A stretch of 64,000 nucleotides of DNA from Podarcis melisellensis. Taxonomy: Eukaryota. Position 1 is the first letter of the stretch. The number at the start of each line of letters is the position of its first letter. The notes beneath the pieces are model-generated. The model was given only the letters and a program-made list of their open reading frames with translations. It did no database searches and was not told the origin of the DNA. Positions 18,485 through 51,701 of the stretch are shown here, one piece after another. Location of the stretch: NCBI GenBank assembly GCA_964234715.1, contig OZ174284.1; one strand, given 5' to 3'. The position numbers and the translations under genes were made by a program.

Positions 18485-18494
18485 ACCTGGAACA

Positions 18495-24940: not shown

Positions 24941-24980
24941 TTCATTAGAGTTACATACGTTCAAATTAAGGTTGGGACTA

Positions 24981-26951: not shown

Positions 26952-26974
26952 TTATAAGAAGCTGTAGTATTTGT

Positions 26975-27751: not shown

Positions 27752-29517
27752 TAAAAGATAAATTAAAAAAAGGAATGCAGCGCTTGGCTCTTCAAACCAA
27801 AAGTTGTAAAGTACAGAGGAGGGGAGGCCGAAATTTTGCTTTGCTGAATGATTACTATTGATTAGATTATTAGGGTACTATTACATTTGTGTCAATGGAT
27901 ATTTTTATTCTGAAATTCACAAATGACCATTCCAATGAATAAGGGGGGAAATCAAACAAGATGCAGGCAGGGATTTATTAACTGCTGGGGTTTATGTACT
28001 TTTAAAAGTAAGTAAATTCATAGGAACAAACAGCAGAAAATAAATACAGTTATCTAAAAGAGGTAATAATTTTGGAGGCAGGGGGACAGAGAAACCCATG
28101 AAACCCGATTAGTTAATTTTTACTTCACAAACAAACTGAAGGTAATGTGATTAAAAGCTTATTTTTCCTTGTGTCTGGTCGCATCACAGTGCTGGATAGT
28201 CCTATCACACTTTGTTTGAACTGGTAAATTGAAATATTGTAATGCTTAGGTAGGAGATGACCTTCCCTTCCCTTTGAAAATGCAACTTATTAAAAACTGG
28301 AATTATCACTAGCAAGATAAAAAAAAAAGTGGTTGAAAAAATATTTTGCAGGTCCTTTCTGTGTATCTATTATACATGTTCTAGTTATCTCTTTGGCTTC
28401 ATTCTCAAGGTGAGATCCTAAGGGCCAAGTGTTTCCTTCCATGTGTTCACTGCAAGTTCTTGCCACCAAAATTCTTTCCTGTACAATCATCTTGTAACCT
28501 AGAAATAAGACCCTCAGGAACCACACAAGGGCCTTCAGTTAGAAGGTGAAAATAGGGATATTTCCCACACACGCATGGAAGGGAGCACTTAAGGCCTGTG
28601 TTCACAGACAGCACATACATGCATCTTTTTGATTGGGCAGAATGTTCACATCATGACACTGTTTCTTTGCCTTTTGGCTAAGATCAAGTGTGGTATCATA
28701 ACCAGATGATGTCCATTATTTGGATTGTTGGTCTTCATGACTTTATGACTCAGAAGATCCAGATTGTTGTAAGGGGATTACATAAAGCCAGTCTTTCCAA
28801 AAAATGTATTTATTGTATGAGGAATGTTACAATAGCAATAATAGCAATTATTTCCGTTGTTGTTGTTATTTTATTTATACCCCACTCATCTGGCTGGGTT
28901 TCCCAGGAATATTAATATTTTAGGAGCTTATCACATTTTGAGAAACGCTACTTGAATAGGTGATTCATTCATTATTTAAAACCATTTATATTTCACTTTC
29001 AAACTAAAGAAAAATGATCAATTAGTCAGCCAAGTCTTGTGTAATTTTGGTCCAGAAAAACCAAGAAATTGCCAGATGTATCTTTTGGGGCCAGTCTTGC
29101 TCCAGCATTTTTAGACATGCCAGCACCCTTCTCTGATTCCACCCTGTTGCCAACACTGTTTCAACCCTCATCACAGTGAGTTGGGGTGAGATTTGGTGAA
29201 GCCAGAATCTCAAAGCTCCTCATGACCTTCACAAAAGATAGTGAGATCAGAAGGGCCAATAAAACTTACTTCTCCACAATTTTGTGATTCTAAGCACAGT
29301 TAGTTCAAAGTGAACCCAGTTGGCTTTGGTCAACCCTTTTAAAGCAAATGTTCTTAGAATTGCAGCCTTAATCTGGAAAAATAAAAAAGTTCCATTTTTT
29401 TTAAATTCTTTTTATTAATTTTCAATAACCAAACAAAGAAAACAGATAAACAAAACAAAAAAGAAATAACACAATCGTTCCAGTTTTAAAAGGAGAATGA
29501 ATTTTGTTTCATACCAG

Positions 29518-29673
29518 GTATGGGATGGCACAAAATGTCCCTTTTCGTATTGGAAGGTGGTTGTTACAGAAGGTGACCTTGAAGGTGACAGTGTTCTCAT
29601 TCATCGACTAAGAAACCTGATAGTGGATGTTGTCATTTACGATAATCATGTGCAGTTGGCAAAATCACTGAAG
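29518..29673 (+). CDS. POT1: POT1 exon, OB2 (VWDGTKCPF...YDNHVQLAKSLK)
   Basis: 156 nt, CAG acceptor and GTAAGT donor. VWDGT and YDNH motifs. Confidence 0.97.
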
Positions 29674-29989
29674 GTAAGTCCTCAGCAGTGCTTTACGTTA
29701 TGTGTGTGATCTTACCAGAAGCTAGCTACCCAGCTCTGTATGTATTTAAACTGTGTACTTTTATCTTGTTTAATCCTCCTAGTAAGTCAAACCTTCTAAC
29801 CCACCCCCCGCCCACAAAAGACTAATTGCTTTAATATGCCACATATAAGTGGTCTCCTAATTAAGCAGCTTTATTCCAGATATTGTGGTATCATGCAGTT
29901 GTGAACATATGCGAAATGTCTTCCGTGACTTTAAATTATTTCTTGTAAATGAGATAAAACATAGTTTAATTTGTAGTCCCCATTATAAG

Positions 29990-31440
29990 CAATATTTTTA
30001 TACTCTTTAAAAGCCTATTGCTCATTAAAACTGCCATTAATAACTGTTTGAATGTGCAGTCCACCATTTCTTAAGTGGCTTTGCAATATTGATAATTTTC
30101 AAGGAATGAGAACAGTTTTAACTAACGTTGCTGAAGTGTATCTTGGCAATTTTGTGCTCAGCCCCCTGTCCTTAGTTGCTCTAACCTGCAGAGCTTAGTA
30201 TACTCCTCGAAGGCATTTAGCCTGCGCCAGTATGTCAAATAGGCTAGATCAATTCTGGCTGCATTTAGCCTGCGCCAGTATGTCTAATAGGCTAGATCAA
30301 TTCTGGCTGCAAGAGAGAGGAGGCCCAACTTGGCTCTGAGGTGGGCTGCTGGTGTCCCACAGGGAAGCCCCCAAATCTGCCTCATAAATTTATTTTGTAG
30401 GATCTCTATTTCAGATTTAACACCAGTTCCCCATATCTCAGCCCCGTAGAGCATTTGGGCTATGATTTTAGAGACAAAGCTCTTAATAGCTGGGTTGATT
30501 AGCTGCCCGTCATTTGAATAAAAGGTAAAGGTACCCCTGCCCGTACAGGCCAGTCTTGACAGACTCTGGGGTTGTGCGCCCATCTCACTCAAGAGGCCAG
30601 GGGCCAGCGCTGTCCGGAGACACTTCCGGGTCACGTGGCCAGCGTGACAAAGCTGCATCTGGCGAGCCAGAGCCGCACACGGAAACGCCGTTTACCTTCC
30701 CGCTGGTAAGCGGTCCCTATTTATCTACTTGCACCCGGAGGTGCTTTCGAACTGCTAGGTTGGCAGGCGCTGGGACCGAGCAGCGGGAGCGCACCCCGCC
30801 GCAGGGATTCGAACAGCCGACCTTTCGATCGGCAAGTCCTAGGCACTGAGGCTTTAACCCACAGCGCCACCTGCGTCCCGTCATTTGAATGGAAGAACCT
30901 ATATAGCTGCCCAGTAGAATGATCAGATATTAGCTTAATTGCTTCCAGATGGGGTTTCCATGATGACTTCCAATCAATAAGTAATCCTAGATATTTAAAT
31001 CTGGGTACTTGTTCTAGGGTGTGACCGTCTAGAGCTCACCTGGACTTGGTAGTTCTCTTTCCAAATACAGTGACCTTGGTTTTATCATAGTTAATTTTTA
31101 GTAGATGCTCTTTTTTGCACAACTGTCCAAATTTAACCAGTATCCTTTTAAATATGATTTTGTTCTGAGATAACAAAATTTAAGTCGTCGGCATAGAGCA
31201 GATTTGGCACTTTACGATTCCCAAGGGTGGGGGCAAAAAAGGAGGGGATGCAATATCAGGGATTATTTATATAGTAATTAAATTGGAAGGGTGCCAGTAT
31301 ACATCCTTGTTGACACCTCTGTTAGTTAGAATTGCCTGTGAGAGGCCCAGTCTCACTTGCATGAGGTCCCCTTGATGCAGTTGTTGGATGAGCCACAGAA
31401 GTCTTTTATTGATATTTGAATGGGCCCCCCAACTGGTTGT
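29990..31440 (-). mobile_element. Degenerate non-LTR retrotransposon RT fragment (RTEX-like)
   Basis: Minus-strand motifs QGCILAP, LLYADD, KINYDKTKV, FKYLG and LYGAEIWG...LQNKFMRQIWGLP, with frameshifts and stops. Clade assignment and ends are approximate. Confidence 0.75.
30520..30879 (-). mobile_element. Sauria SINE, third (divergent) subfamily, nested in the LINE
   Basis: TSD gtcatttgaat (30509-30519 / 30880-30890), CpG-rich. Confidence 0.93.
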
Positions 31441-32430
31441 TCCATATAAATACTTCCTATGTACAGACTTTCTTTACAACTTAATGATAAGATGCTTCTC
31501 ATTATACACTGTGCTCACCATGTCAGAGCTGTGTATTAAGAATTCCCCGAGACCTCCAGGTATAGGGCGGTATATAAATTCTATTATTATTATTATCATT
31601 ACTACAGTAATAATTCCAAACATGGACAGAGAACGCTGGAAGGGATAGAAATTATACAGCTCAAAGAAAAGCCATTTGCTTCCTTTCTCTGTCCTCTCTT
31701 CTCCCAGGGCCTTAGGCAAGCTGCCCCAGTAGGCTCTGGCAGTGCCACGTTGCCAAAATATACCCTGGCATCATCTTGGCAACTGCATCACCCCCATTAG
31801 GGTTACTGGGCAGGAGCATGCAAGAACTTTAGAGCCCGTTGCTGAAAAGTGCCAGAGGGCTGCAGCGCTGCCTTTTTCATTTGTCTGCAACTCCTCAGGG
31901 CCCCGACACAATGTCACTGTTAGGGAACAGGGCTCAAGCCATAGTGGGGCAGGTGGATAATAATCAATAGAAAAAAGACAGTCACGGAATTGAGAAATTG
32001 CACAAAACAAATGAAATACCGTGAAAATCCCTGAAACGAGAAGTAATCGACTAGAAATATTATCTTGTGGAAATCAACTAAATAATAAAAATCAAAAAGC
32101 TTAAGGAAAAAATTAGAACCTAAAATAGAACAAAACTTTAACGGGATGCTGGCTACAAACCTCATTTCACTGAACTATTTAGTTTCCTCAGAAGGAAATA
32201 GAAAAATCATAAACTTTAAATGACCAAAATTCAAACATGGCCCAGGTGTTACTGCAGCGTTTCAGCCCTGTTCTTGAGTTTGTTTTAAATCTAAAACAGC
32301 TTTATCTAGTATTTCTTTCAATTTGTGCCATTTAGGTTTTTAAACCTTTTTGTAAAAGCAGGACTAGAATTTTCATAGTGGGACAGGCGGGCATAAAGAT
32401 AGCAAACATTTGCAGCTGCCAAGCTCAGTA

Positions 32431-32655
32431 CAGTAATACCTTGGTTCTTGAACGGCTTAGTTGCCAAATGCCGCAAACCCGGAAGTAAGTGTTCTGGTTT
32501 GCAAACGTTTTTCAGAAGCCGAACATCTGACGCAGCTTCCACTTGAGTGCAGGAAGCTCCTGCAGCCAATCGGAAGCCGCACCTTCATTTTGAACGGTTT
32601 CGGGAGTCGAATGGACGTCCGGAACAGATTAAGTTCAAGAACCAAGGTCTTACTT
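32431..32655. mobile_element. Tigger-like MITE
   Basis: cagtaataccttggttcttgaac...gttcaagaaccaagg, related to the 21719 and 53676 copies. Confidence 0.8.
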
Positions 32656-32902
32656 TACTTCCCTTTCCAGTGCCAGAATCTAATGTTCAGTACAGGATGT
32701 GTGCATCAGCACCAGTGTGCTATGCCACTTGCTTATGCTAGATGTCTTGCTCTACTTATTGCTTCATTTAGCAGGAGGCAGCGTTTCTGCTCCCTCCAGC
32801 CTTTTCTGCTTCTTCTGGGAATGGGACATGGTTCTTGCATGGTAGCAAGCCTCTGTCATTAATTTTGTGTTGCCTTTCCAAACTGGAATATACATGTTAA
32901 AC

Positions 32903-34098
32903 TGGCGCTTGGGGGGGAATTGTCATCGCGCCACTCCTTGGTGTGTGGAGTACCTCAGGGTGCGATACTCTCCCCGATGCTTTTCAACATTTTTATGCGC
33001 CCCCTCGCCCAGCTTGTCCGGAGTTTTGGGCTGGGTTGCCATCAGTATGCTGATGACACCCAGCTCTATCTGTTGATGGATGGCCATCCTGACTCGGCCC
33101 CAGACACACTGACCAGATGTTTGGAAGCTGTGGCTGGATGGTTACGTGGGAGCCGGTTGAAGCTAAATCCTTCGAAGACAGAGGTCCTGTGGCTGGGACG
33201 GGACGATATGGGATTGGGGGGCCAACTCCCATCTCTTGCGGGGGTGCAATTAGTGCCAGCACCGTCCGTTAAGAGTTTGGGTGTAATCTTCGACACCTCT
33301 CTTTCCATGGAGGCGCAGATTGCAGCTATAACAAAGGCAGCATTTTTTCATCTCCGCCAAGCTAAGCAGTTGGCTCCTTACCTCTCTCGCCCTGACCTAG
33401 CCACTGTGATCCATGCGACGGTCACCTCCAGACTGGATTATTGTAACTCACTCTACGTGGGGCTGCCCTTGAGACTGACCCAGAAACTCCAGCGGGTGCA
33501 GAATGCTGCAGCGAGACTCCTTACGGGGTCTTCGCTGCGAGACCACATTCACCCGGTGCTATACCAGCTGCACTGGCTCCCGGTGGAGTACAGGATCAGG
33601 TTTAAGGTGCTGGTTTTAACCTTTAAAGCCCTATACGGCCTAGGACCCTCGTACCTACGGGACCGCCTCTCCTGGTATGCCCCACAGAGAAACTTACGGT
33701 CTTCAAATAAAAACATCTTGAAGGTCCCAGGCCACAGAGAAGTTAGGCTGGCCTCAACTAGAGCCAGGGCTTTTTCGGCTGTGGCTCCGATCTGGTGGAA
33801 CGCTCTGTCACTAGAGACTAGGGCCCTGCGGGACTTGACATCTTTCCGCAGGGCCTGCAAGACAGAGCTGTTCCACCAGGCCTTTGGCCAGGGCACAGCC
33901 TGACTCCCTCCCTCGGCAATCTTTGTGGAGCTCTGGCACAATGGTTGCCAGTGGCTTGATTTGAATCAATTTTATAATGCATGATTTTAGAGTGTTGTTT
34001 GTGCTGTACTTTTGTACTGTTTTATTGTTGTTAGCCGCCCTGAGCCCGGCTTCGGCTGGGGAGGGCGGGATATAAATAAAATTATTATTATTATTATT
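32903..34098 (+). mobile_element. Young 5'-truncated L2-clade LINE with uninterrupted ORF2 C-terminus (32920-33903)
   Basis: GVPQGAILSP, YADD, LNPSKTE, SRLDYCN and LHWLPV..RI.FK motifs, 3' stem-loop region and (TTA)n tail, CpGs retained. Confidence 0.93.
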
Positions 34099-36520
34099 TT
34101 CCTGAACAAAGGCCACAGCCATAGGGGTGGTTTTTAACCTCTTTTCTGCATTTGAAATTTATTCAGGATTGAGTTGCTGTGTAAATTGTTGGTCAAATGG
34201 CAGGTGACTCTACTCAATAGCATCATGTTCATTTTTGCAGTAACAGCTGGAGTTTGGAAATGGTGGTTTAACGTATAAATCTGCTTTGTGCTTTCTTGCT
34301 GCCACAAAGACAATAGCGACGTCTGTATGAAAACGACATGTTTAATTTTATTTTTAAATTATACATATTTGAAAACTTGGTGCTCAGTGCGAAGGCACAT
34401 AAGAAGCAGAAAACATGGGGAAACTGGGTGGTGGAAGTACATTATGTTTCACTTAATAACAGCACAGTGTGAAATTTATATCGCTGTGTTCCTGCCAACA
34501 GCAGTTTGTCTTAAAACACTGCATATTTTTTCCATTGAATGCAATACAAAACTTTAATTTCACTAAATTGCATGCTACTTGAATGGTAAATTATGTTGCT
34601 GCTTTTTATTTGCTACTGATGAAAATAGGTTAGTGGTATTGATGGCTATATTTACATTTCAGGTCTTGTATGTTTCCCAGCCTCGTGTTGCATGGCACCT
34701 GGATATGCTGTGCACCAGAATAATACTTATTTGTTTTAGTATTTGTAGACCATGCTTCAGCATAAGCTCATGCTGTATACAGATGTTAGTATTTATGTAT
34801 CATTGGTAAAGGCCGCTTGTAGCCAACACCTTCCCAGTCCCATCCCAGACAGCAAGGCCAGTAGTCAAAGGTGATTAGATTTGTGGTCCATTGCATCTGG
34901 AAGACCTCTCCAGTCTTTTTAGACCAGCAGGGCCATTTTGAATTTTCAGAAAATGTTGTGGGCTCCACTCACAAAATAGCTGCAGTGGGGACTTGGCCCT
35001 AATGCAACATGGGGCATGGCTTAGTACAAAATGAGAGAGAAGGCACCAGACAACCTCCATGGGAATTCAGCTGTGTCCTGCTGGTTCTAAATGTGGAGAT
35101 TGCACAATATTATCATAGAATTGTAGGGTTGGAATGGCCATCTGGGCCAACTTCCTGAAAGGCAGGAATCTCAACTAAAGCATCCATTCCTCACTCACCC
35201 TGCAATGGTCTGAGGCCATTCCATGCCCACTGAGTGCGCTCAGTCCTTCAACTGTTTTGCGTGCATGGGTTCCCCCTTTTTAGCTTCAACCAAAGAGAAC
35301 ATGGCTGGCTGGCTGGCTGGCTGGAGCAGCGATCCTGCCAAGTATACTCCACACTGCCAAATTTTGTTTGACATCCCACTTAATGTAACTGTAGTAACAA
35401 CCTGAGCTAACTCTTCTGTCTGGCATTTGGGCAAGCATTTGCAGAATAGCACTGGTGGTTATTGTCTTTGCATCCAACCCAATTTTTATATGGATGTTTA
35501 AACATAAAACTAGCTTGCTTTTGTGTGTGTGGGTGTCTGCAGACTCATGATTAGAATTTGCTCTTTACAAACCAGAAGTATACAATGCTGCCCTCCAACG
35601 GAAAATTCTTATATTGCACATACTGTTACATGACTACAGCCTCTGCTCATTTGCTGGGCTATGTTATGAGATTGTGAACATTTTTTTTAAAAAAAAAACT
35701 GATTGCATCAGCTTTGCTTAATTAGACTTAAACAAGACATAGCAAAAAAGATACATACAAAACATATATTTCTATTAGAAATAAAATATAATTTTATTAT
35801 TTTATAGTTTGAACAATTATTCTTTCATAATCGTGAATTCTCAATGTTGCACAGCAAGTATCTTCCGAAACTGAGTGGAGCTTCAAAAGCAGTTCATGTT
35901 GTGGGGCTTCTACTATTTAAAAATGGGGAGGCATTAAAATGGAGTGCTGGATGTGATTAAAGAAGCTCTTCAGTTACTTATCCATCTCCTGGAAAAAAGT
36001 AAAGAGAAGCCAGGCCAGCAGATTCCAGTTAGGCTCCAGAAGGCCAAGTCCCCACCCTGTAAGAGCAACAACCTCCTGCTGCAGACCCCTCAAGGAGGGC
36101 AGAGCAACCAAGCCTTTTCTCAAGGGCCCAACCAGGCCTGGTTTTAGAACTTTGAGCAATCTGCTTCCACCCCAGTTGATTAATATGAGAACCTGGTAAC
36201 ATAAGTTTGCTTGATTTAATCTTCCCTTCTCTCCCCCCTTTTTTAGATTGCACTAGTTGGTGGTTACCAGTTAAATTGATGTGTAAGCTGTTTGGGGAGC
36301 CTTTCTGGCTGAAGAGTCCAATATAAATGCTTTGAATAAATGAAGTTCTATAGGCTAGGGTCCAGAGGATTACTTTGCCAGGGTAGCAAACATGGTGCCC
36401 CCTACCACCACCGGTTTTGTTGAATTACAGTGCCCATCCTGACCGTTGGACCTGTTGTCTGAGGATGATCAGATGTTGCTGAGCTACAGCTCCAGCAGCT
36501 TATCCTGCAAAGCCCAAAAG

Positions 36521-36581
36521 CAGGCATAGGCAAACTCCAGCCCTCCCAAACATCTGGAGGGCTGGAGTTTGCCTATGCCTG
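36521..36581. mobile_element. 61-bp minimal hAT MITE
   Basis: Perfect 26-bp inverted arms, 9-nt spacer, perfect TSD cccaaaag. Confidence 0.92.
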
Positions 36582-37890
36582 CCCAAAAGTTTCAGGGAGA
36601 TTATCTCCACTTTCCATGCACCAGTAGGACTTCAACCTCCCTCGTCCTATTGAGTGACAGAAACCTATGCCAAACTGCTTATGAAATCCCCCTTGGCTTT
36701 TAGAGATGTTTGTATGCCACAAGGGGGAAATGCTACATTTAGTTGGCATCCCCTTATACACATGGAACTAATTGCATGGTTCTTTGCCTCAAGAGACATA
36801 GATTTTGATAGAGACAAACCTCTCTCTCTGAGTTATGCTGCCATAAGATATGCTTTAATAACATTGCTGCAAACTTCCATTTTCAAGGCCTGCCCGGTAG
36901 CTATAAAGATCACCCTTTAAGGATATTTATTTTGTTCAACCGCAGGAATTGTCCATAAAGTAGGATTTTGGAGTAAAAGAGGCCAGTTACTCAAAATCCA
37001 AGCGTCCTAATTTTTATGTGGTTTTATCTCTGCGAGGCAGGGCATTCTGATCTCACTGAAATGCAGGAAGTGTCTGTGATACATTAACACCATCTAATGG
37101 ATGTTAAAGGAAGCAGCAGTAGCTTTGAGAGAGATCCCTTGGCATGGTGCTAAAAGAAAAAGGGGGATATTCACCTTTATTTAGGTGACTAAGAATCCAC
37201 CACAACAATAAATAAACATCTCCAGTTAATTAATAAATGTTTGCTAAACACCACCCCTGACCATTGGCCTTGCTTGTCCAACAACAACTAGAGGCCCATG
37301 GGTTCCTATAGGAACTGTTGGAAGCTGACTTGAGAGAAGGAAGTTGAATGAAAAATTTGCAGACTGCTGCTAGATACATAAAAGACAGGGCCTTTTCTAT
37401 TGCACCCTGGCTGTGAATCTTATCCACAACTATAGAGATTCAGTTGGTCCTTTCTCCTTTAAGTTTTAGGTGAGCTTTTATTTTGTTTAACTGACTGTCT
37501 ACTGTGGGGTGAAAATTCTGCACCCCTGTTTTTATACTGAGTTGTTTTATCCTGCTTCTGGTTTTAACATGCAAAATCAATTTTAGTAATTTGAACTGTT
37601 TTATGGTGTGCTAATGTATTTTACGTTTCTTTTTTGTAAGCTATTCTGAGTTTATTTTCTAAAGGGTGGTGCGATATAAACTCATGTGGTATTTTATTTT
37701 ATTGATGTGCTGGTTTTGAACAAAAAGTTCTGAAAGCAGTTTGTATGCTAAAAAGGAGGCAACATGTTCAGAAAAGTTGTCTCTGGCACAGCGCGGTCTA
37801 GTTGCACGGCATCATCTTCCTTAACTCTCTTTTATAGATGAAAACGAGTTTTATTTTACCTTCTGAAATAACTGTTTTATATATTTCAAG

Positions 37891-38054
37891 GTTGGAAGCT
37901 TTATTAGATTGTACAGTTTGCATGCAAAATTCCAAAGTCGGGAAGGTGAGCCTAATGTTTCATATCTGCAATTTCATCTTCATGGTGGTACCACGTACGG
38001 CCGTGGGATTACAAGCCTGCCGGAAGGCCACGCCGATGTTGAGGATCTAAAGAA
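37891..38054 (+). CDS. POT1: POT1 exon, OB2 ([11 protein letters not shown]...[13 protein letters not shown]...DVEDLK)
   Basis: 164 nt, AG/GTAAGT. FHLHGGT-x-YGRG motif. Confidence 0.97.
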
Positions 38055-38075
38055 GTAAGTAAATAGAATTCAAGA

Positions 38076-38242
38076 TAGGGTTGTGCCATATGCCCAAAAT
38101 TTCCCAGACATAGTTGGAATACTGCAGTCGGAAGCAGTGTCCAGGCAGAAATCGCAAAAAGGTCCCAGGAAATCTGGACGTATGGCAGCCCATGTTGCTT
38201 TTCATGATTTCCCTAAATTGCTCAACAACTTTGGCAACCCTA
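38076..38242. mobile_element. hAT (Blackjack-like) MITE
   Basis: Ends tagggttg...tggcaacccta, perfect TSD attcaaga (38068-38075 / 38243-38250). Confidence 0.85.
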
Positions 38243-38395
38243 ATTCAAGACAGCTGTCATTTGGAAGAAGAGTAGGGAATGAGAGAAGCCTTCATGTTAC
38301 TAATGGTCAGCCTTTGCTTCCCAGTAATCTGAGTGATGGTTACTTCTAAACTCTAGATGCATGCTATTTTAATGAATCAATATGCATAAGATTCA

Positions 38396-38601
38396 AGTGG
38401 CGCCCGCCCTGTGGAACGCCCTCCCATCAGATGTCAAAGTGATAAAGAATTACCTGACGTTCAGAAGACATCTTAAGGCAGCCCTGTTCAGGGAAGTTTT
38501 TAATATGTAATGCTGTACTGTTTTTAACACTGGGAGCCGCCCAGAGTGGCTGGGGAAACTCAGCCAGATGGGCGGGGTATAAATAATAAATTATTATTAT
38601 T
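38396..38601 (+). mobile_element. L2 LINE 3' end
   Basis: Same text as the 45680 and 60057 copies, with gccgcccagagtggctgggg...gggcggggtataaat(tta)n tail. Confidence 0.85.
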
Positions 38602-38970
38602 AAGAGCCATTGTTGTGGTATGATCGGCATAGAATAAAAATCAAGCAACATTAAGGAACCACAGAAAAATAGCTGTGTTTCAAGGCCCTGTCTTCTAGGG
38701 GGATGCTATCATTTTATCAGTGCACGCCAGTACTACTTTGTATTTATAAATCTCAAGTCCACAGTGCTAACAATCTGGCTGTATGAGCATGTGAATTCAG
38801 GGAGTCATTGCAGCATGTTCAAATTCTGTTATTGAACATGGTCCCATCACAATGGAATGAGAAGCACAAAGTAGATTTCATCTGAGTTAAACAAAATCCC
38901 ATCTGCAAGGCCATTTATTTGTTTACTTCTGTGTTTTGATTATTTTCTTCAAAACCTTTTTCATTTTCAG

Positions 38971-39047
38971 ATTCCTGAACTCTGTAGACTTGATGGAAGA
39001 TGAGTCTTCAGAAAGTTCTTCAGAACCCGAGAATGCTTACTTTACAT
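38971..39047 (+). CDS. POT1: POT1 exon, hinge (FLNSVDLMEDESSESSSEPENAYFT)
   Basis: Strong tcattttcAG acceptor, 77 nt, phase 2 to 1. Donor GTAAAT is the best GT before the in-frame stop. Weak similarity to human DLESANL...SEPDDSF. Confidence 0.85.
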
Positions 39048-39531
39048 GTAAATAAACTTGAAAACAACACTCAGCTCTGTCTTCCTCGCTTTATAGTATA
39101 GTACTTCCATGTTCTTTTTATGGAGTTGCATACCGTTTCTTCTAACGCAAGATAAAAATATTCAGGAAACCCTAAAAATGTGTGGACGTGAGCTGTGGTC
39201 CATCACTGACTTCTTTGATCTCAACAGCTGATAAAAAGTGGCTGAATTACGCAAGATAGTTTTGCTTTCTTTGTTTATGTGCAAAATTGTTTTCTCTGTC
39301 ATCTTGGATAAGAAAATGTATCCTAAGATGGTAGGAAGTTTAAGTGACAAGCAGGTGGCAACATTTTGCATCTCACATCAGGTTATTTGGGACCACATTA
39401 CATTTTCTACCAAATGGAATATGTAACCTACATCTGAAGCATGATTGATCATATCTAAAAAGATATATTTAAGATTTTATAATGTTATAATATAATAATA
39501 TTATATAAATAATAATAATAATATATAAAAA

Positions 39532-39882
39532 GGGACACAGGTGGCGCTGTGGGTTAAACCACAGAGCCTAGGACTTGCCGATCAGAAGGTCGGCGGTTCG
39601 AATCCCCACAACAGGGTGAGCTCCCGTTGCTCGGTCCCTGCTGCTGCCAACCTAGCAGTTTAAAAGCATGAAATGCAAGTAGATAAATAGGTACTGCTCT
39701 GGCGGGAAGGTAAACGGCATTTCCATGCGCTGCTCTGATTTGCCAGAAGCAGCTTAGTCATGCTGGCCACATGACCCGGAAGCTGTACGCCGGCTCCCTC
39801 GGCCAATAAAGCGAGGTGAGCGCTGCAACCCCAGAGTCGGTCACAACTGGACCTAATGGTCAGGGGTCCCTTTACCTTTACC
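39532..39882 (+). mobile_element. Sauria SINE, full length
   Basis: Full body. Flanking direct repeat taatgttataatat. Confidence 0.93.
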
Positions 39883-40234
39883 TAATGTTATAATATGTTA
39901 ATGATTTCATTGTACACTATCTTACTTTTTAAGAATCATAGAACTGTACCATTGCAAGGGACTCCAATGGTCATCTAGTCCAATCCCCTGCAATGCAGGA
40001 ATAATTTAATGATTTGGAATTTTAGAAATATTCTTATAAATAAAAATTAAGTGATAACGCTGTAAGTAGTCAAAGCTCATGGATGCTGTTGCTCAAACAT
40101 ACAGCTTCTTGTCATCTTAAAACAAGATGTTTCAGTCTGTGTTGAAATTTGTTGTGGCATATGATGTCTCTTGCAGTTTACAGGGAAAAGTAAGTGGGAG
40201 AAAATTAATTCCCCCTTTCTTGTCTTTTTAAAAG

Positions 40235-40276
40235 TAGGATCTTGTTCAGAAGGATGCCAGCAGTTATCCGTTACAG
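40235..40276 (+). CDS. POT1: POT1 exon, hinge end (LGSCSEGCQQLSVT)
   Basis: Matches human ERCQQLSAT, donor CAG|GTAGGA. The frame stays open with the AAG acceptor (40232-40234) but not with the adjacent TAG. Confidence 0.85.
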
Positions 40277-41131
40277 GTAGGACTCACAGATGCAGTATAC
40301 CTTTGATCCAAAGAAGTTCTTCGTGCACAGTGTTGTTTTTTGCAGAGTGTTCTCCCCTGAAGCACTCTGTGCTTCACCAAGCCCACTTTTCCAGGTTGTA
40401 CCCCCCCTAGAATGGCTCAGAGTGTGGCAAATGGGAAGCTGCAGCAGAATAGAAAATCAGTAGAACTAACATTCTGCTCAGCTAAGGCACCTTTTGTATT
40501 GATAGTAGGGAGGCCTGAGATATTTGAACTTTGCAAATTTTGATAGGTACTGACCTGATCCACATCTCCCTGACTAACATGCTTATCGAAATGTAATATC
40601 CAGCAGATTTATGCTTTCCAAATATCCCAGCACTGTCCTCTGCTCAAAACGTATCACAATACGTTTTCAAAACGCACATGAAAATATGTTTTGAAATCCA
40701 CATTTTGAGATGGGAAAAGTTTTAAACCCTTATTTAGGGTGGATTTAAAAAGTAGCAGATGAGATTGCATATACAGTCTTATGAATGAACACATGCACAA
40801 CTGACATGGATCAGAAATAAATTGGTTTTACCCATTGAAACACTTCATATTTCTGCCTGTTAGGCCATCAGTTGTGCAGACCTAGGGTGTGCCCAGTCCT
40901 ATTTTGGTAAAGAGCTGGATACAACAGATGTGTGTATTTTTAATTTCAAAACATGAAGTGTCTATTCACATAAGTGCGTATTCAGAATTGTCACATCTAG
41001 ACCACAGAATGAATCCACAACTTCCAGCAATTTAATAAAGCTTTGTTTAAATTTACTTCCGAGCTGCTATTTTCCTCTCATTTTATGTTTGTTCACATCA
41101 GTACAAGCCTTGATATCTTTGTGTTTTACAG

Positions 41132-41288
41132 TGCTGAGAGATCACCAGCATTTTGAAGTGACTGCGCTGAGTACTATTTTGAACAGCAGGAGTCCTCAGC
41201 CGTATCGCATCAGAGCTAAGCTGAGACAATTTGAACCTGAAAAGCTTCATCAGTCTGTTAAACTTCATTGTCCCCAGTGCAATTTGTT
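41132..41288 (+). CDS. POT1: POT1 exon, OB3 start with CPQC zinc ligands
   Basis: 157 nt. YRIRAKLR and [10 protein letters not shown] motifs, AG/GTAAGT. Confidence 0.97.
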
Positions 41289-41578
41289 GTAAGTGCCGTG
41301 ATACATTTTTCTCTCATGCTGCTTTGGAGATGTTGCTTACAAAGTTTCCTAGAGCTTTGGATCAGTGGAACTTGGATGTACAGCAATGTCAAGGGATGGT
41401 TATCGTATCCTTTTGTCATTATATATTCCACCCTAAATATGTGCTAAAATGCCTGTCTAGATAAAGGAACATGATATTAGCACTTTAAAAATTCGCTGTT
41501 GTTAAAATATAACGGGCACAGTAGAGATTTGTTTATTATTAACAAATGTTTAATTTGCCCTTGCACAAATAGCAAATA

Positions 41579-41786
41579 CAGTCGTACCTTTACTTATGTA
41601 TCCCTCTGGATACGGAATCTTTGGGTTATGGCCACGGCAAACCCGGAAGTGTACACTTCCGGGTTTTGCTGCATGCGCAGAAGTGCTCAGTCACGCCGTG
41701 CGCAGAAGTGCGCTTCTATTTACGTTATTTTTGGAGTGTGAACGGACCCCCGGAATGAATTAAGTTCGTATCTGGAGGGTCCACTG
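41579..41786. mobile_element. Tigger-like MITE (family of 27493)
   Basis: cagtcgtacctt...agggtccactg, TA flanks, internal gcatgcgcagaag. Confidence 0.8.
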
Positions 41787-42514
41787 TATTACCTTTTTTT
41801 TTTTTTTACTGGGTAAGGTGTTTTTGCTTCATTGTGTGGTGGGTGACATTTATGGTATGAGGCAAATTGACTGACAGACAGGAGAAGCTTGCAAGTATTT
41901 CAGGGTGTTCCCTTCCCCCATTTTTTTATTGAGAGACTTCCGTATAGAAGGCAGAGAATGATTCCCCCATCCGTAATATCAGCTTGGCTTCTTAGTTACT
42001 CTACCTTATTAAGTAGCAGTCTTTGCTCTCACTTTTATAAGCAAAAGCAAAAGAAGCTGGGGTGATCACTTTGATTCATGTTTAGTTCTAACTTCCTTTT
42101 TAATGTGGGATGCTCCAGTACTGAGTAACATAAGGACCTTAAAATTCCAGCAGCATGCAGAAAGAGGGTTGAAAAGCACCACAAAGCATCAAAACAAAGA
42201 AGATATCAGGTTCCAGCTCTTAGTGGTACAAGGCTTTTAATTTACCTCCACGTATTTTGGACTTCAATACTCCTTCAGGAACATGAAATGCTTACAAGTT
42301 CTTTAAATTTAGAAACACCTTTTAATGAAAATCTGAGCTATTCCTTTACCCTCTCTCAGTACCACTATTCACTGCGGAGATGTGGAGAAAATAAAATGGA
42401 GTCTTAAAGCTTGTTTAAAAGGTGTTTCTGAGCCTGTTCTCCGCTTTCTTAAAGGACCGCAGCCTGCTTTCGCCAATTACCTTGTGTCCAAACATGTGTG
42501 CGGAAAAGTCTAGC

Positions 42515-42668
42515 CAGTGGCGGAGCTTCATGCTCCAACACTGGGGAGCAGAGAACAGGCAGGGGCATGGCTGGCACGCGTCCCGCAGGGGCGTGGCGGC
42601 CAGCGCGGGCCAGGACAACAGCCGTGATGGCAGTGTGCTCCCCCTGCCCCCCTCTTCCTCTGCCAGTG
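42515..42668. mobile_element. GC-rich hAT (Tip100-like) MITE
   Basis: Ends cagtggcggag / ctctgccagtg, perfect TSD agtctagc. Confidence 0.85.
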
Positions 42669-42926
42669 AGTCTAGCTATTGTAGGATTTCTTTCCGGGCT
42701 GACAGAGCCGCAGCAAGATTCTCCCAGCAGCAGAGTCAGTGCCACTTACCAGGAGGGGCAACTTGGCAAGGTCAAGGCTGTGTTGATGTGCCAGCAGAGC
42801 CAGCTCAGCTCTTCGGCCAGTGTGCCCACCTCACCTCATTGCCACTAAACCCCTTCCAGTAACAGGCAGTGAGTCCCCTGGGGCAAGCTACTCCTGAATT
42901 GCACGATCCGTTAAAATATCAAATAT

Positions 42927-43373
42927 GTTGTTGTTGTTTAGTCGAGTCCGACTCTTCATGTCCCCATGGACAAGAGCTTGCCAGGCACTCCTGTCTTCTA
43001 CTGCCTCCCACAGTTTGGTCAAACTCATGCTGGTAGCTTCAAAAACACTATCCAGCCATCTCGTCCTCTGTTGTCCCCTTCTCCTTGTGCCCTCCATCTT
43101 TCCCAACATCAGGGTCTTTTCCAGGGAGTCTAATCTTCTCATGAGGTGGCCAAAGTATTGGAGCCTCAGCTTAGCATCTGTCCTTCCAGTGAGCACTTAG
43201 GGCTGATTTCCTTAAGAATGGATCAGTTTGATCTTCTTGCAGTCCATGGGACTCTCAAGAGTCTCCTCCAGCACCATAATTCAAAAGCATCAATTCTTCA
43301 GCAATCAGCCTTCTTTATGGTCCAGCTCTCACTTCCATACATCACTACTGGGAAAACCATAGCTTTAACTATA
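42927..43373 (-). mobile_element. BovB (RTE) LINE 3' fragment
   Basis: LRLQYFGHLMRR..SLEKTLMLGK.EG.RRRGQQRTRWLD motif and (CAA)n tail. Confidence 0.92.
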
Positions 43374-43451
43374 CATCTAATGTATTCCACAACATCATTT
43401 TGAGCAGGCTTTTGTAGATTGCTTCAGACTGTTGTTGTTGTTTTTTCCCAG

Positions 43452-43657
43452 GCAAGAGGTTCCGGATGGGAGTGAGCTTGATCTAATTATACAGGAAGCT
43501 TCAGCTACATGTCCAATGTCCGATTTACAAAATACATCCTTCTGTGAATCTGTTGTTTGGGATACTGAAAACCAGGGACAGCGACGTGTGGTTATTCATT
43601 TTGTAAAGCGTGATGAACTACTACAAGACCCAGAAGACAGTTTGATTATGATAGAAG
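43452..43657 (+). CDS. POT1: POT1 exon, HJRL domain (QEVPDGSELDLII...HFVKRDELLQDPEDSLIMIEG)
   Basis: 206 nt, AG/GTTAGT. QEVP, LQNTS, HFVK and IEG motifs. Confidence 0.97.
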
Positions 43658-44786
43658 GTTAGTTAATACAGCTGTATGTAAGAGATCAGACGGTATGCTA
43701 CACAATATCTTCGTCTTTTTAAATAAAGTTTAAGAAATACTTAACTATTTTAAAAAGTTTTGATGCTGATAAAAAGTATCTGTCTCTTGCTGTTACCCTC
43801 GTGTGATTCCACTAAACCAGAAAAACTTCAGAAGAGAAAATGTTTGCAGCATATATGTACAAGTTTTCTTTTCAAATTGATTTGTGCACTTTGTGAGCAA
43901 ACTTCATGCACTATGGAATAGTTGTTAATTGGCAAGCCCCATATATATAATGGACTCGTTCATAAAACACATTTCTCGAATCATTCCCATGTGGTCTCTT
44001 GCCTCTTCAAAATCTTACCTTGAATTTTGCCCCCAAATAAATCTGCTTTCTTTCTCATAGTTCTGCAAAATACTTAAAGGTGTTTGTATATAGGGTTAAA
44101 ATAGAAAAGGGGAAACTAAGCTGGAAATTTAGGTAGCACTCCTTGATTTGAATCTGTGAGATACATTTAAACATGAGAAGAGAAATGGGGAGGACAAGAA
44201 TAATCTTAAGAGAGAATTGCTATATAGTGAATTGTGAATGAGACACTGAATAATAAATCCAAAGCTTTATTTCTTTTTTTACAAATGTCTTTGTGCAATT
44301 TACCTTTGGTTCCATTTTAGTTGGAATTCATATTCTGCCCTCTAAGAAAGTATTTTACGACTTCTAGTAGCTGGATAATATACAAGCCCAAAAGCCTTTC
44401 CTGTTGCAAACGTACTGTACTTAGTCATCCTCTGGATGTCAGTGTTTTCACAGAGATAAAGCTGTGCTACTGTGAGAAAAGCAGTAGGCAAGCTATGTTT
44501 TGTTTTTATTCACAAGCCATACCTCATGTATTTTGGGCACACGTGCCTCTTAAATGAATGGCATCACCCCAAGAAAAGGAATTACTCAGCCGCCATTCAT
44601 TTTGTGGGCTTTTGCGAGAGAACCTCCTAGTGGACTGTGCCCATGTGTTTCTATTATAGCTTTACAAACAACAGTTGTTTGTTCCAGGAGCTCTGTATTT
44701 TTGTGTGAAAAATGCAAGTAACAATGATTGAAACAGATTTGATATTAATTTGTATAATGATTTATGAATCACCTTCTATGGTGGTA

Positions 44787-45003
44787 CAATGGTACATCGG
44801 GTTACATAAGCTTTAGGTTATATATGCTTCAGGTTACATACTCTGCTAGCCAAGAAATAGTACCTCGGGTTAAGAACTTGGTTTCAGGATGAGAGCAGAA
44901 ATCGTGCTCCGGCGGCAGCGGGAGGCCCCATTAGCTAAAGTGGTACTTCAGGTTAAGAACAGACCTCCAGAATGAATTAAGTACTTAACCCGAGGTACCA
45001 CTG
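44787..45003. mobile_element. Tigger-like MITE (17605 family, reverse orientation)
   Basis: Reverse complement of 17605-17846, TA flanks. Confidence 0.88.
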
Positions 45004-45114
45004 TATTCAAAATACAATATAAAATAAAACACGTGAAATCAACAACTCTCATTGGTTTGCTTCACAACTGGACTAAGCAAATTGACCTATGCTGAAAGCT
45101 AGACAGAAGAAGTA

Positions 45115-45273
45115 CTGTATTTTTCTGTCTATAAGACTCCCCGATGTATAAGACTATTTGGGGGGACTCAGATTTTTAAAAATGGGGGGAGATGTATCCA
45201 TGTATAAGACGCCCCCTAATTTTCAACATTATTTTTAAGGGAAAAACTTAGTCTTATACACGGAAAAATACGG
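45115..45273. mobile_element. pogo/Tc2-like MITE
   Basis: ctgtatttttctgtctataagac / gtcttatacacggaaaaatacgg, TA flanks, internal tataagac repeats. Confidence 0.8.
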
Positions 45274-45679
45274 TATGTCCCTCTTGGTTCAGCTGGATTA
45301 ATTAATTGGTCCTCAGCTGCCGAGTCTTGAATTTGCAACATACCACCCACTGGTATCTTCCATGAAATACATTTCATCATGTTTGCCACTTTATGAAATC
45401 CTAATGAACCGTATCGGGCGTTTGTGTATTTTATATTTTTAAGCTTGTATTCCATGCATGGTGTAGAGCACATTTATTTCAGTTATTTCTATACCACCTT
45501 CAGGATACCAATCGTCCTAAGGTGGCTTATAAATAATATGACTGTGTTCTACTTCCGCTGTCTGAACACCAGTTGCTGGAAACCACAGGAAGGGCGACTG
45601 CTGTTGCACTCGGGTCCTATTTGTGGACTTCCCATAGGCATTTTGCCACCCACTGTGAGAGCAGATTCCTGGTTATTCT

Positions 45680-46041
45680 AATTATTATTATTATTTATTT
45701 ATTATTATTATTTATTTATTTGTACCCCGCCCATCTGGCTGGGTTTCCCCAGCCAGATGGGCGGCTTCCTCAAAGACAAAAAAATACACTAAGATGTCAC
45801 ACATTAAAAGCTTCCCTGAACAGAGCTGCCTTAAGATGTCTTCTGAATGTCAGGTAGTTGTTTCTCTCTTTGACATCTGGTGGGAGGGCGTTCCACAGGG
45901 TGGGCGCCACTACCAAGAAGGCCCTCTGCCTGGCTCCCTGTAGCTTTGCTTCTCGCAATGAGGGAACCGCCAGAAGGTCCTCGGCGCTGGACCTCAGCGT
46001 CCGGGCAGAATGATGGGGGTGGAGGTATACTGGGCCGAGGC
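45680..46041 (-). mobile_element. L2 LINE 3' fragment
   Basis: RTLRSS...RAFLVVAPTLWNALP...FRRHLKAALFREAF and an (AAT)n tail. Confidence 0.88.
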
Positions 46042-46251
46042 AATAGAATTGTAGTTTAAGAAGACGATTGTTGGGGGTTTTTTTCAGGATCCTTTCTACA
46101 GAGTAGTTGGTGGTAGGAGCCCTGGTGCTGGTAGTGGGGTACAGGCCAGCAGGAGCAGGTCCTGGGGTCACCTGGCTCCTTCTGGCTCCTGGAATCCTTC
46201 GTCCAGCTGGAACAGACTTTCAGGTGGACTTTGCCCACCTGCCTGCTTATT

Positions 46252-46395
46252 GGCTGGATAGCTTAGTTGGTTAGAGCATGGTGCTGATAAAGCCAAGGTT
46301 ACAGGTTCAATCCCCGTACGGTGCATATTCCTGCATTGCAGCAGATTGGACTAGATGGTCCTTAAGGTCCCTTCTGATTCTAGAATTGTATGATT
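46252..46395 (+). mobile_element. tRNA-Ile-derived SINE with CR1-type tail
   Basis: Head resembles vertebrate tRNA-Ile (tagcttagttggttagagcatggtgctgataa...ggttcaatccccgtacgg), followed by attcctgcattgca...ggactagatggtcc. Confidence 0.8.
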
Positions 46396-46543
46396 GTCTG
46401 TCTTTCTTGGGATCCAAATATACACACATTATATACACAAGGATGGTCAGGGATAAATTTGATAACTTGGCTCACTGCTGTTATTTAACGTGTTATCAGA
46501 GTATTAAAGTAACCTAAATATAGCTATTTCTGTTTATTAATAG

Positions 46544-46679
46544 GAGGCACACTGGAGGAAATCTTGAAGCTCTCGAAAAAATTCAAAGGAATTATACCCG
46601 TAAGAGCCACGGAAGACGATCTTGTGTTGCTGGATCTTTCAGCTCCATTTCTTTGGCAAGGGAATATACCACACTATGG
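46544..46679 (+). CDS. POT1: POT1 exon ([45 protein letters not shown])
   Basis: 136 nt. LLDLSAPFL motif, AG/GT. Confidence 0.97.
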
Positions 46680-47189
46680 GTAAATCTAACACACACACAC
46701 CCATATTAAATCTGGCTTCTTAACTCCAGTTCTGATGCTGAAACTTTGATCGGTTGTTAAACCTTTGGAAAATTAGTTATTTTATCTGTCCTTATATCAA
46801 ATAATAAAATTGAAGAAGACAGGATGATAAGTTCCTAGCTGGGTCCAAATTTACACATCGGTGTTATTTTTACACCCATGCTATGGGCAGGATAGCAATC
46901 TTACGTGTGCAAAGTGCACAACTTCTGCCTCCTTTGAATTAGCTCGGGAAGTTGTTTCATACTCTAGAGTTGTGCATGCGTTACCAATACTCTCAGATGT
47001 GCCACGTGCCACTAGATCACTAGGGCAGGATTTAATCTGTGTCAACAAAACCTGCAAATGTGGTAAAGGCCTTTTTATGGAGGCATTTCTAAGCCACGAA
47101 AGGTAATATCGCATTAGTTGTGCCTCATCTGTAGTACCGTGTCCACCTCTGGGCAAAACCATTTGAAGAAGTAGTTCAGGATGACAGTG

Positions 47190-47420
47190 AAATCCATATG
47201 GAAAGCAAGTCCTATGAGGAAAAGGTTGTGGGAACTGGATATATTTAACCTCCAGAAGAGAAGACTATGAATGGACATAATAGCACTGTTCAAATACTTG
47301 AAATACATGGAAAGGGTGCCAAGTCTTGCTTGCTGCTGCTACCCCAGAGGGTTAGATCTACGTAATGGGTTTCAGTTACAGGAGGGTAGAATTTGGTCAG
47401 ACATTAGAAACGGTAACAAT
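47190..47420 (+). mobile_element. Degenerate CR1 ORF2 3' fragment
   Basis: ELDIFNLQKRRL..DIIALFKYLK...RNGFQL motifs. Confidence 0.7.
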
Positions 47421-48140
47421 GGAGCCAATTTCTTGAGGGAAGAAATTCATTCTTGCTACAAGGGAAGAAGTCAGTGGAACTAATGAAACTGAAATCACAG
47501 TATTAATTCATCTTGACTTAGACCCGATTATATTGGACAATAACATTCACTTTCTCTACACTAAAAACACTTGGTTTATTTTCTGCAGTCATCAAAAGTT
47601 AAAAGATGTCTTTTTAAGCGTGCTATACAAGCATTTGCATACTTTTCTTACCTGGAAAAGGTTTGTTGCAGCTCTCTTTTAAAAACCTACAAACACCATT
47701 TTTATGTTGATGATTTTTGTGGCTATAAAAATGTTCTAAGTTTTTTTTAAACATTGCCAAAGTACTAAAGAATAATTTTTTTCACTCGTTAGGGCGTGGT
47801 TAAATTATTAATTCAGTCGTGTTTTATCATATTGTACCATACCAAATTTATTACTTCTATTGCGTGAAGCAGTTTTGTGTCATTAAATAACAAAGAGCAG
47901 TGTTTAGAAAATATATGCTTAGCAATGTATCAGTTTGCCTGACGTTCTTCAGTACAACTGACCAAGGGATTTATTTTTGTTGACAGTATTTTATAAAAGC
48001 CATTAAAGTTTATTGCTTTTCTAGGCCATATAAAATATCTGTCTATAAAATAGCAGGAAAATGTTCTTCTGACAAGTTTGATTCTGAGAAAAGCTAAATA
48101 TACAGAACAGTTAATGCTATTGTTTTGTTTCAAACTTTAG

Positions 48141-48235
48141 GTGCAAACACTGTTCAAATCCAAAGGCAATAGCAAGCTTGAGTCCCCTTGCTGCACAGAA
48201 AGATCCATTGTGGGAGCCCACTACCATAGCACAAG
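48141..48235 (+). CDS. POT1: POT1 exon with CKHC zinc ligands (CKHCSNPKAIASLSPLAAQKDPLWEPTTIAQ)
   Basis: 95 nt, phase 2 to 1, AG/GTTAGT. Corresponds to human CKQCS...WIPSSVAE. Confidence 0.93.
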
Positions 48236-48612
48236 GTTAGTTTATGCTATTATCCATATTTTTATTCAGAAGTCGAGAGTGTAAATAAAACCACCCAGTA
48301 ATGTCCAAGTAAGGAGAAAGCTGCATAAATCTAAAGATTGAAGAAGTTATTGAGTCCAGGAGAAAGAGGATGACTTGCAGTTCATTCCGAAATAATTGTT
48401 ACATTGAAGATGTCTCTCTCATTATTTGTGCCTTGTTCATGTAGGAGAGCAAAGTTATATTAAGTTGAATAAAGTGTTTTTGACATTAATTTCAAATTAG
48501 ATTGACTCAGGGTTCTCAAAGCAGCACATTAGGCAGTGCTCAAAGCCTGCTCTTCTTTGTGAACAGTCCTCTTCTTGTTGTTTAAATAAGGGCATCATTG
48601 AGATGTAATAAA

Positions 48613-48752
48613 TGGCTGAGTGGGTAGAGCATGAGACTCTTAATGTTATGGTCCTATGATTGAGCCCTACATTGGGCAAGAGATTCCTGCCTTTCAGAGG
48701 GTTGGACCAGATGAGATGATCCTCATGGTCCCTTCCTACTCTACAATTCTAT
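48613..48752 (+). mobile_element. tRNA-Lys(CTT)-derived SINE with CR1-type tail
   Basis: ggtagagcatgagactcttaat head and ggtcccttcctactctacaattctatg tail. Confidence 0.7.
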
Positions 48753-50129
48753 GCCTGCAAGAGGCAATTTGAGTTTAGCATACAGAGCTTTCCTGGAAAA
48801 GAGCAGGAATGTCCCTAGCTTAATCTCAATCTGATACATATTAGTCTGGCATCTGATGCATAGGAAATAATTATATGTAGCTTTAAAGGTCTACAGAGTC
48901 CAGTGCTATTATTATACGCACGCGTCCAAAAAAAGATCCTGCAGAATCATTTGATCTGAATTAAGTAATAGGGCTTTTCTGTTAGCCCCATAGCAGAGTG
49001 CAATGGTGTGTAAGCATTATTATTATTTTGTAAGGGGCTTCCAGGAATGGTTAGGTTCCAAACACAGCATTTCGTGCTGCAGTCCCTGTGCATAGAGCTG
49101 CGCCCCCATGGAAGTGTGTTATGTGAATTCCCGAATTTCTGGAAGTAAAATAAAGCATGATTAGCTTCATCACAAGCAATAAATGCAGGGGAAGCTGATT
49201 TTGATAGTTGATTTATGTAATTATTCACAAATTACCACAAGTTCCATTTAGGGTGGCTTTTGTTCTCGAGAAATGACCTTGATGCTGATTTATGTAAATA
49301 AGAACAAATGCTGGTTTCTTTGTTGCATAGCAGTCACCTTTCAAAAGATCTGCATTTGAGCAGGCAAGAGGAGCTCAATTGCTCAGTCTTGCTCCATGCT
49401 TTCACTATATTCACTCATATGAATCTTGTCCTAGCAGAAGACATAATAGCGAAACACAACCAGCAGCTTTCTGTTCTCCCGCCCCACTGTAATCTACCTA
49501 AGCAACAATAGCAACAAAAATGAAACCAGAATTGTGTGTTAAAACACTAACATGGAACTAGAAAACTTAATTCAGTGGCTGTTCATATCTTCATTGGACT
49601 CTGTATTTAAGCTATACAAAATAAATTGGTGGGTTATTTTAATGGGATACATAGCAGAACAGTTCTCTGCAGGGGACCATTCTTCTACCAAGGAATCAGT
49701 AGCGCTTTCCCTTTCAGATTTCCTTAGGAATGGAACTGGGCAGAACAAAATGAATCCACAATAACGCTGCCAAGATGTCTACTAGCTATTGGGAAATAAC
49801 TTACAAAGCCTACACGAAATTAAAATTTTCAATGGATGCAATTGTGTATGTAAATGCTATTGAGCATCTTCCACAGCAGTGTTACTATGTTACGAAGGTG
49901 CAGTATAGATCGCTTGTGTGCACATCACTGCGCAATTCACTTCAATAGAGGGAGCGGTTTAGTTGGGAGCCGTTCATTCACACTGGAATCCTCTACAGCA
50001 GAAATAAATCAGTGCATGACAGTGGTGTTTTAAGTTTCTGTATTTCACCGATAATATAGTTTTAACTTTTTATTCTTCGCTTATATTGAGTAATCTCTAA
50101 ACACAACTACTTATTTTCCTCCTGCTTAG

Positions 50130-50221
50130 CTTTAGGACTTGTGCCCCTTGAATATGTCTTTGTGATGAAGTTTATGCTGGACGATGGAACAGGAACCCTG
50201 AATGTGTATCTCATGGATTGC
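50130..50221 (+). CDS. POT1: POT1 exon ([31 protein letters not shown])
   Basis: 92 nt. LDDGTG motif, AG/GTAAGA. Confidence 0.97.
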
Positions 50222-51173
50222 GTAAGAGACCAAAGCATTGTACTCTGAAAATGTTCAGTTTGAATATAAGTGTGTGCTTGTATATGGCTGTTCTCTTAAG
50301 CGACATGGAGAGAGGGCAGAGTTGCAGTAGAAGCAGTAAGAACTATGATCTAGTTTAAAAATGATTTAGTTAAGCTCATGTGAAATTGGATGAAAATAGC
50401 CACTTTCAGACCTTGATTTTTAGATTAAATACAGCAGCAGCAACAGACATAGCAGGCCCAACATTGAGAGGGCCTGATCCCAATGCTATATGCTGGATAC
50501 AAGCAGTTGCGCCTGTTGGTGGTCTTGACAGTGGATGACCGCTAACTTTTCTTTGCCCAGATTTGGAACATTTTGGAGCATCTGTCGTTTTAATTCCCCC
50601 CCCCCCAGTGTCTCTCTTTGGTGCTATGACATGCCACCATTCTGGAACTACAGTGCAACACACACTGTACTTGATTCCTTATGTATCCTTCTCTCGTCCC
50701 CCTTTCTCTTTCTCTTAGTTTCTCTCTCCTCCCTTCCTTTCCAGTTGAAGGAAAGGGCTAGAAAGAGTTCCTTAAAGAATTACTTGCGGAAGCTGCCATG
50801 GGATGCAGTGGTGGCCTTTAAAAGACTTGGATGGCTTTAAAAGAGAAATTAGGCAAATTCATGTGGGAAAGGGCTAATGATGGCTACTAGCCATGGTTTC
50901 TGTGTTCTGCCTCCGTGGTCACAGGCAGTACAGCCTTCTGAATATCAGCTGCTAGAAGCCACAGGAGAAGAGAGAGTGTCCTTGCGCTCAGTAAACCTAC
51001 AGGCATTTGGTTGGCTACGATGAGAACAGGATGTTGCGCTAGATAGGTCTATTGCATGATCCAGCAGACTCTTCTTGTGTTAATTTAAAATTCTCGGGGG
51101 GAGGGGAGGAATAATAATTTGTGGCCCCTTTCTACTTCGGGACAGTTTGCCCATCACTAGTTAGAATTTAAGA

Positions 51174-51528: not shown

Positions 51529-51701
51529 TAGTTAGAATTTAAGCAAAGCCAAATCAGAAACAAGATGAAAAAATGTTCTTGTTCTATAAAAAATGATAGA
51601 ATGGCAGCCTACCTCCTCACAGACGAATGTGGGAAGCATGTAAAAACTTGTCAGTCTTGACATGTTTGAACAAAAATGTAAAAGTAAGGTTATTACATAT
51701 A

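Follow-up and report, generated by a model that had tools for sequence, protein, structure and literature searches.

The hinge intron of POT1 in the lizard Podarcis melisellensis ends in a tandem acceptor that is real and probably used, a further case of the known class of NAGNAG sites that toggle a stop codon. It lies on the plus strand of a stretch of 64,000 nucleotides (GenBank assembly GCA_964234715.1, contig OZ174284.1), here called the window. The intron end reads ...ttttaaAAG|TAG GATCT and, at a genuine 3' splice site, contains two AGs separated by 3 nt, neither of them in a GAG, which corresponds to the motif of alternative NAGNAG acceptors. The last base of the upstream exon is a T in phase 1, so that splicing to the proximal AAG joins T to TA GGA and encodes Leu-Gly, whereas splicing to the distal TAG joins T to GA and creates a TGA stop after ...ENAYFT. 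The preliminary description of this DNA had read both outcomes from the letters, and the window sequence bears them out. It had also proposed that the distal choice either limits POT1 dose through nonsense-mediated decay (NMD) or yields an OB-only protein. The position of the stop agrees with decay: the TGA lies 829 nt ahead of the last junction and is followed by 7 junctions, and the position rule for NMD asks for a distance of over 50 nt. In the numbering of the protein P0002 the stop corresponds to residue 475, past OB2 (313-454) and short of the C-terminal domain, which begins at about 480.

POT1 and its hinge exons in the window

The identity of the gene, proposed beforehand from sequence, is confirmed by several lines of evidence. 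A 291-nt exon shows 97% identity to Podarcis POT1, and P0002 residues 97-788 map to the window exon by exon in tblastn, residues 1-96 having no mapping within it. Pfam recognizes OB1, OB2 and a split OB3/HJRL, as in a POT1 orthologue, and homology to human POT1 reaches E=5.8e-247. PF02765 gives two matches in the species' own genome, both inside the window and none elsewhere, which rules out a second POT1 copy as a source of reads. Following the proximal path, 14 modelled exons yield 626 codons, the sole stop being the terminal one. The features of interest are the following:

5900..54249, plus strand: part of POT1 within the window, from the end of the OB-N exons to the stop codon (tblastn of P0002, exon model, PF02765 matches)
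38971..39047, plus strand: upstream hinge exon, 77 nt, ending ...TTTACAT in phase 1 (sequence; the end is the loose end of contig X14)
39048..39056, plus strand: 5' splice site gtaaataaa, overlapping AATAAA (39051-39056) as well as a Cys-Lys-stop read-through in frame (sequence)
40205..40209, plus strand: predicted branch point TTAAT, whose A (40208) lies 26 nt from the proximal G and 29 nt from the distal G (yUnAy scan)
40209..40229, plus strand: polypyrimidine tract, 21 nt, with purines between the tract and the first AG (sequence)
40232..40234, plus strand: proximal acceptor AAG, exon from 40235, open frame with Leu-Gly (X14 junction; 17 of 18 lacertid records)
40235..40237, plus strand: distal acceptor TAG, exon from 40238 would give TGA (sequence; use suggested by read extents and the Elgaria isoform pair)
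40235..40276, plus strand: hinge exon, 42 nt, symmetric phase 1-1, LGSCSEGCQQLSVT (sequence, exon model)
41132..41288, plus strand: following exon, opening the C-terminal TPP1-binding half (reads, P0002 map, human alignment)

The upstream donor at 39047, on which the distal stop depends, is real: contig X14 of a relative joins ...GCTTACTTTACAT to 40235, and a different upstream donor is ruled out by the match of the loose end of X14 to 39047. The overlap of the donor of this intron with a putative poly(A) signal, also pointed out earlier, is present in the sequence of 39048-39056. The 40276/41132 joint at the other end of the hinge exon is present in three of four runs. TTACA is common to 39041-39047, 40270-40276 and 41125-41131, that is, to the ends of the two hinge exons and to the acceptor that follows, and because of this repetition the joint position given by the aligner is ambiguous by 6 letters.

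Several further observations concern these exons. Skipping of the symmetric 42-nt exon (40235-40276) preserves the frame (T+TG, Leu), and the exon is absent from one P. muralis UniRef model and from three bird records. A putative SINE-like insertion occupies 39515-39885 in the hinge intron, after an AT-rich run. A micro-exon-like motif, acag-GGAAAA-gtaagt, is found at 40180-40195, 45 nt upstream of the acceptor, and could at most be an alternative to the 42-nt exon; co-splicing of a 6-nt micro-exon (40184-40189) with that exon was rejected, an intron of 45 nt being left. No depth was seen at 40184-40189 in the four runs, in which an exon so short could not be placed. The OB-N extension exons at 5900-9373 correspond to the OB-N already known (PMC8653790), which primate and rodent POT1 do not have.

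The stretch between 40200 and 40233 is free of AG. A crude matrix built on the 13 other acceptors gave similar proximal and distal scores of 3.6/2.4, 4.5/3.9 and 5.1/5.1, which come from too few sites for a ranking. NAG follows AG in 373 of the 4275 AGs of the window, and 2 of the 14 modelled POT1 exons start with NAG. In-frame stops are introduced by about 2% of alternative NAGNAGs (PMC2699507). The motif by itself is therefore not beyond chance, since NAG follows AG often and about 2% of NAGNAGs make stops. Chance is exceeded by the indications that the site is used, namely the LG/W isoforms of Elgaria and read extents starting at 40238. A second tandem acceptor of POT1, TAG|GAG, is located at 46541-46546, its distal GAG being of the weak type.

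Use of the two acceptors in related lizards

The proximal AAG is used and yields the full-length frame, as observed in relatives. The 39047/40235 junction is carried by the assembled contig X14, from organism C, a relative (by guess RNA; depth 4.7). Lacertid protein records, which comprise 15 among the 19 members of one cluster and all three of another, read YFT-LGSC in 17 of 18 cases, the exon being skipped in the remaining one. Because protein sets omit NMD transcripts and cannot reveal stop isoforms, the X14 contig constitutes the less biased proximal evidence. One read of run X21 also starts at 40235 according to bin-depth arithmetic in a relative.

For the distal site, the region 40110-41330 was read with one contig set and with three raw runs of RNA from organism A, which is a close relative (its indexed runs share 0.65-0.77 of sampled words). 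Between 6 and 12% of each raw run was read, placing 6, 4 and 7 reads in the region; raw-read extents were reconstructed from bin depths calibrated on X14, the starts not being read as junction letters. Two joint reads of X21 sum to 69 letters (36+33) with a maximum side of 36, and therefore one of them starts from 40235 and the other from 40238. The two joint reads of X23 sum to 66 letters (33+33, side 33) and, because both have one start, represent one molecule. Enumeration places both X23 reads at 40238 in 7 of 10 solutions, the remaining three needing unexplained differing stops within the exon, and both reads continue for about 80 unlike letters. X24 has zero reads on the 42-nt hinge exon. 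The 3 letters of this run in bin 41094-41134 fit a single read starting at 41132 as well as two mates starting at 41133 and 41134, and were therefore not counted as a sign of skipping.

By depth arithmetic, two of the three molecules of organism A start exactly at 40238 (95% interval of the share, 0.09-0.99). A uniform-start null for at least two of three molecules at exactly this base gives 2-4e-4. The support thus consists of two molecules from a relative and not from the window species. Together with the isoform annotated in Elgaria, it makes it likely that the distal TAG is used in a share of transcripts, as the preliminary description had supposed.

Squamate comparison and competing explanations

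In Elgaria, the annotation records of isoform X1 read YIP-LG-SC and those of X2 read YIP-W-SC, the lengths differing by one residue. A change from LG to W by loss of 3 nt is possible with TTA GGG or TTG GGG only, and the first alone removes a triplet ending in AG. If the pair is due to an acceptor shift, it requires T|TAG GG, and therefore the tandem TAG is used distally there and gives Trp. The outcome of distal splicing is determined by the upstream base and the third base of the Gly codon: GGA gives a stop, GGG Trp and GGY Cys, and an upstream C gives Arg. All eight combinations encode Leu-Gly proximally, and only one of them, T with GGA, produces a stop.

Thirty-one squamate species were examined. 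Twenty-seven were parsed by script, of which 25 read Leu-Gly and two, both pythons, read Leu-Arg; adding Podarcis muralis, which reads Leu-Gly outside the script pattern, gives 26 Leu-Gly among 28 readable species, the other three being fragmentary or unreadable. Among the 27 parsed species, Leu is found in all and Gly in 25, and the adjacent hinge columns vary. A distal isoform with a sense codon is present in one of the 28 species (Elgaria). Because the two pythons read Leu-Arg, they have no AG at the distal offset. A search for hinge-region proteins (8 matches among 47 candidates) added no further species, and a search for shorter proteins (2 matches among 13) returned just gecko fragments, reading LG. 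Conservation of the tandem site in squamates, raised beforehand as a check, holds as far as the distal TAG is common to lacertids and Elgaria; it fails in the two pythons, and the stop itself is absent in Elgaria, so that the conserved stop of a poison switch was not found across these lineages. Outside squamates, the exon start in turtles and birds differs from that of lizards. The orthologous exon has 15 codons in birds compared with 14 in lizards; birds also have annotated skip isoforms and retain Leu-x-Ser despite the different exon start. The differences in exon start among birds, turtles and lizards suggest that the boundary may have shifted by triplets during evolution.

The explanation we favour, with moderate confidence, is that of an old, unregulated, leaky NAGNAG set by site strength, the distal product of which is probably degraded in lacertids. 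Downstream of a single branch point, predicted at 40208, two AGs would compete. The nearer AAG has a weak A at -3 but would benefit from the proximal advantage and from a purine at -4, and the farther TAG offers the better T at -3. Both a bias of about 1 bit towards the proximal site and the purine at -4 (PMC3250501) favour proximal splicing, whereas the acceptor order CAG>TAG>AAG>GAG (PMC2699507) favours the distal TAG. The proximal/distal ratio would be set mainly by site strength, in line with reports that relative strength predicts mean NAGNAG ratios (PMC3250501, PMC1449888) and that stochastic competition on site affinity explains much NAGNAG use (PMC1449888). The distal outcome (stop, Trp, Cys or Arg) would hinge on bases silent in the full-length frame. 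Because this outcome happens to be a stop in lacertids, some POT1 mRNA is likely discarded there, the TGA transcript being predicted to trigger NMD. Tandem acceptors are reported to be enriched and best tolerated in disordered regions (PMC2279118).

Some observations count against a leak. For a neutral one, a distal share near 2/3 would be high in the face of NMD. The distal TAG is common to lacertids and Elgaria though one synonymous change would remove it, and Leu-Gly is conserved while the neighbouring columns vary. The single species with a sense distal isoform (1/28) also fits a stop hidden in many species, and some frame-disrupting tandem sites are described as conserved and tissue-specific (PMC8055015). 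The same observations speak for a selected unproductive-splicing switch, in which the distal site is kept and regulated and lowers POT1 dose via NMD, Elgaria being a derived escape: the TAG is found in both lineages, Leu-Gly exceeds the adjacent columns in conservation, the inferred distal share is high, and a sense distal isoform is absent in 27 of 28 species, the pattern to be expected were a stop made in most of them. POT1 is, moreover, a low-abundance shelterin subunit (PMC7598640). We nevertheless regard such a switch as doubtful. Elgaria has lost the stop, and the two pythons the distal AG; retention of Leu-x-Ser in birds with a different exon start indicates that protein constraint can explain the conservation; and stops arise in about 2% of NAGNAGs anyway (PMC2699507). 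Unlikely, too, would be an old squamate 3-nt switch, located in the CST-binding hinge, that removes a large part of the POT1 mRNA in a tissue-regulated manner and thereby adjusts telomere capping and length in lizards, with a silent base turning it to Trp in Elgaria and the site lost in pythons. The dedicated hinge-intron control put forward in the preliminary description finds no confirmation, since the stop rests on a silent third base of Gly that gives Trp in Elgaria, the two pythons with Leu-Arg have no distal AG, and the exon start is a different one in birds and turtles.

An essentially unused distal site appears improbable. The 33-letter reads would then be due to clipping, to reads ending there by chance or to a variant that organism A carries at 40237, and it is true that their starts are known from bin depths and not from junction letters, that all seven X21 reads carry unrelated letters, which makes read ends partly technical, and that 3 of the 10 X23 solutions need no start at 40238. 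Contig X14 takes the proximal path, and a purine at -4 favours the proximal site (PMC3250501). However, the same base is reached in two samples from two studies (null about 3e-4), the three alternative X23 solutions require different stops within the exon for which there is no cause, a distal isoform is annotated in Elgaria, and the order of acceptor triplets favours the distal base (PMC2699507).

A stable OB-only POT1, binding DNA without TPP1 and arising from distal splicing or from cleavage at the AATAAA that overlaps the donor, is very improbable: the stop does fall past OB2 and ahead of the C-terminal domain, and PMC7598640 reports telomere association of human isoforms that lack TPP1 binding, but with 7 junctions behind the stop the distal transcript is a standard target of NMD, the window contains an AATAAA about every kb, and no hinge-terminated POT1 protein is found among the 18 lacertid records or the 2 shorter matches, sets that omit NMD transcripts.

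The leaky NAGNAG, if it is a mere leak, would be an ordinary example of its class, relevant mainly to annotation and to the measurement of productive POT1 mRNA. If distal use is near the level hinted at by the few reads, a silent base decides whether a sizeable share of lizard POT1 mRNA is productive, which, if true, would provide a lever on shelterin dose in lizards. Lacertids with a stop, Elgaria with Trp and pythons with no site offer a natural comparison.

Relation to known splicing systems

Poison events in splicing regulators, in which an alternative splice makes an NMD target, are regulated and deeply conserved. Such events are cited in PMC8055015 and PMC2279118. In contrast to such events, the POT1 stop is not retained in Elgaria. 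Truncated variants of human POT1 arise via exon inclusion or skipping and are not known to arise by a 3-nt shift. The lizard case would be similar to the human V2, V3 and V5 variants (PMC7598640) in that splicing gives forms without the TPP1-binding half, the truncated lizard protein being putative. According to PMC3834821, the splicing control of mouse Pot1a concerns exon 4, not the hinge. The hinge of human POT1 recruits and binds CST (PMC10197580), and the lizard tandem-acceptor junction aligns to this CST-binding hinge in the alignment to human POT1. No earlier report of this POT1 tandem acceptor was found among the listings of openly accessible papers that were searched.

The closest likeness is with alternative NAGNAG (HAGHAG) acceptors (PMC3250501, PMC2699507, PMC1449888), with which the lizard site shares two non-GAG sites 3 nt apart, a presumed strength competition with proximal bias and location in a variable linker. 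Most NAGNAGs gain or lose one residue; unlike them, the distal choice in lizard POT1 fuses T with GA into a stop and falls in a subclass of roughly 2%. In CFTR E831X (PMC2951375), too, an acceptor shift of 3 nt determines whether the frame stays open or meets a premature stop. That example is the mirror case, the mutant UAG being included proximally and removed distally, whereas in lizard POT1 it is the distal choice of the wild type that forms the stop, across the junction.
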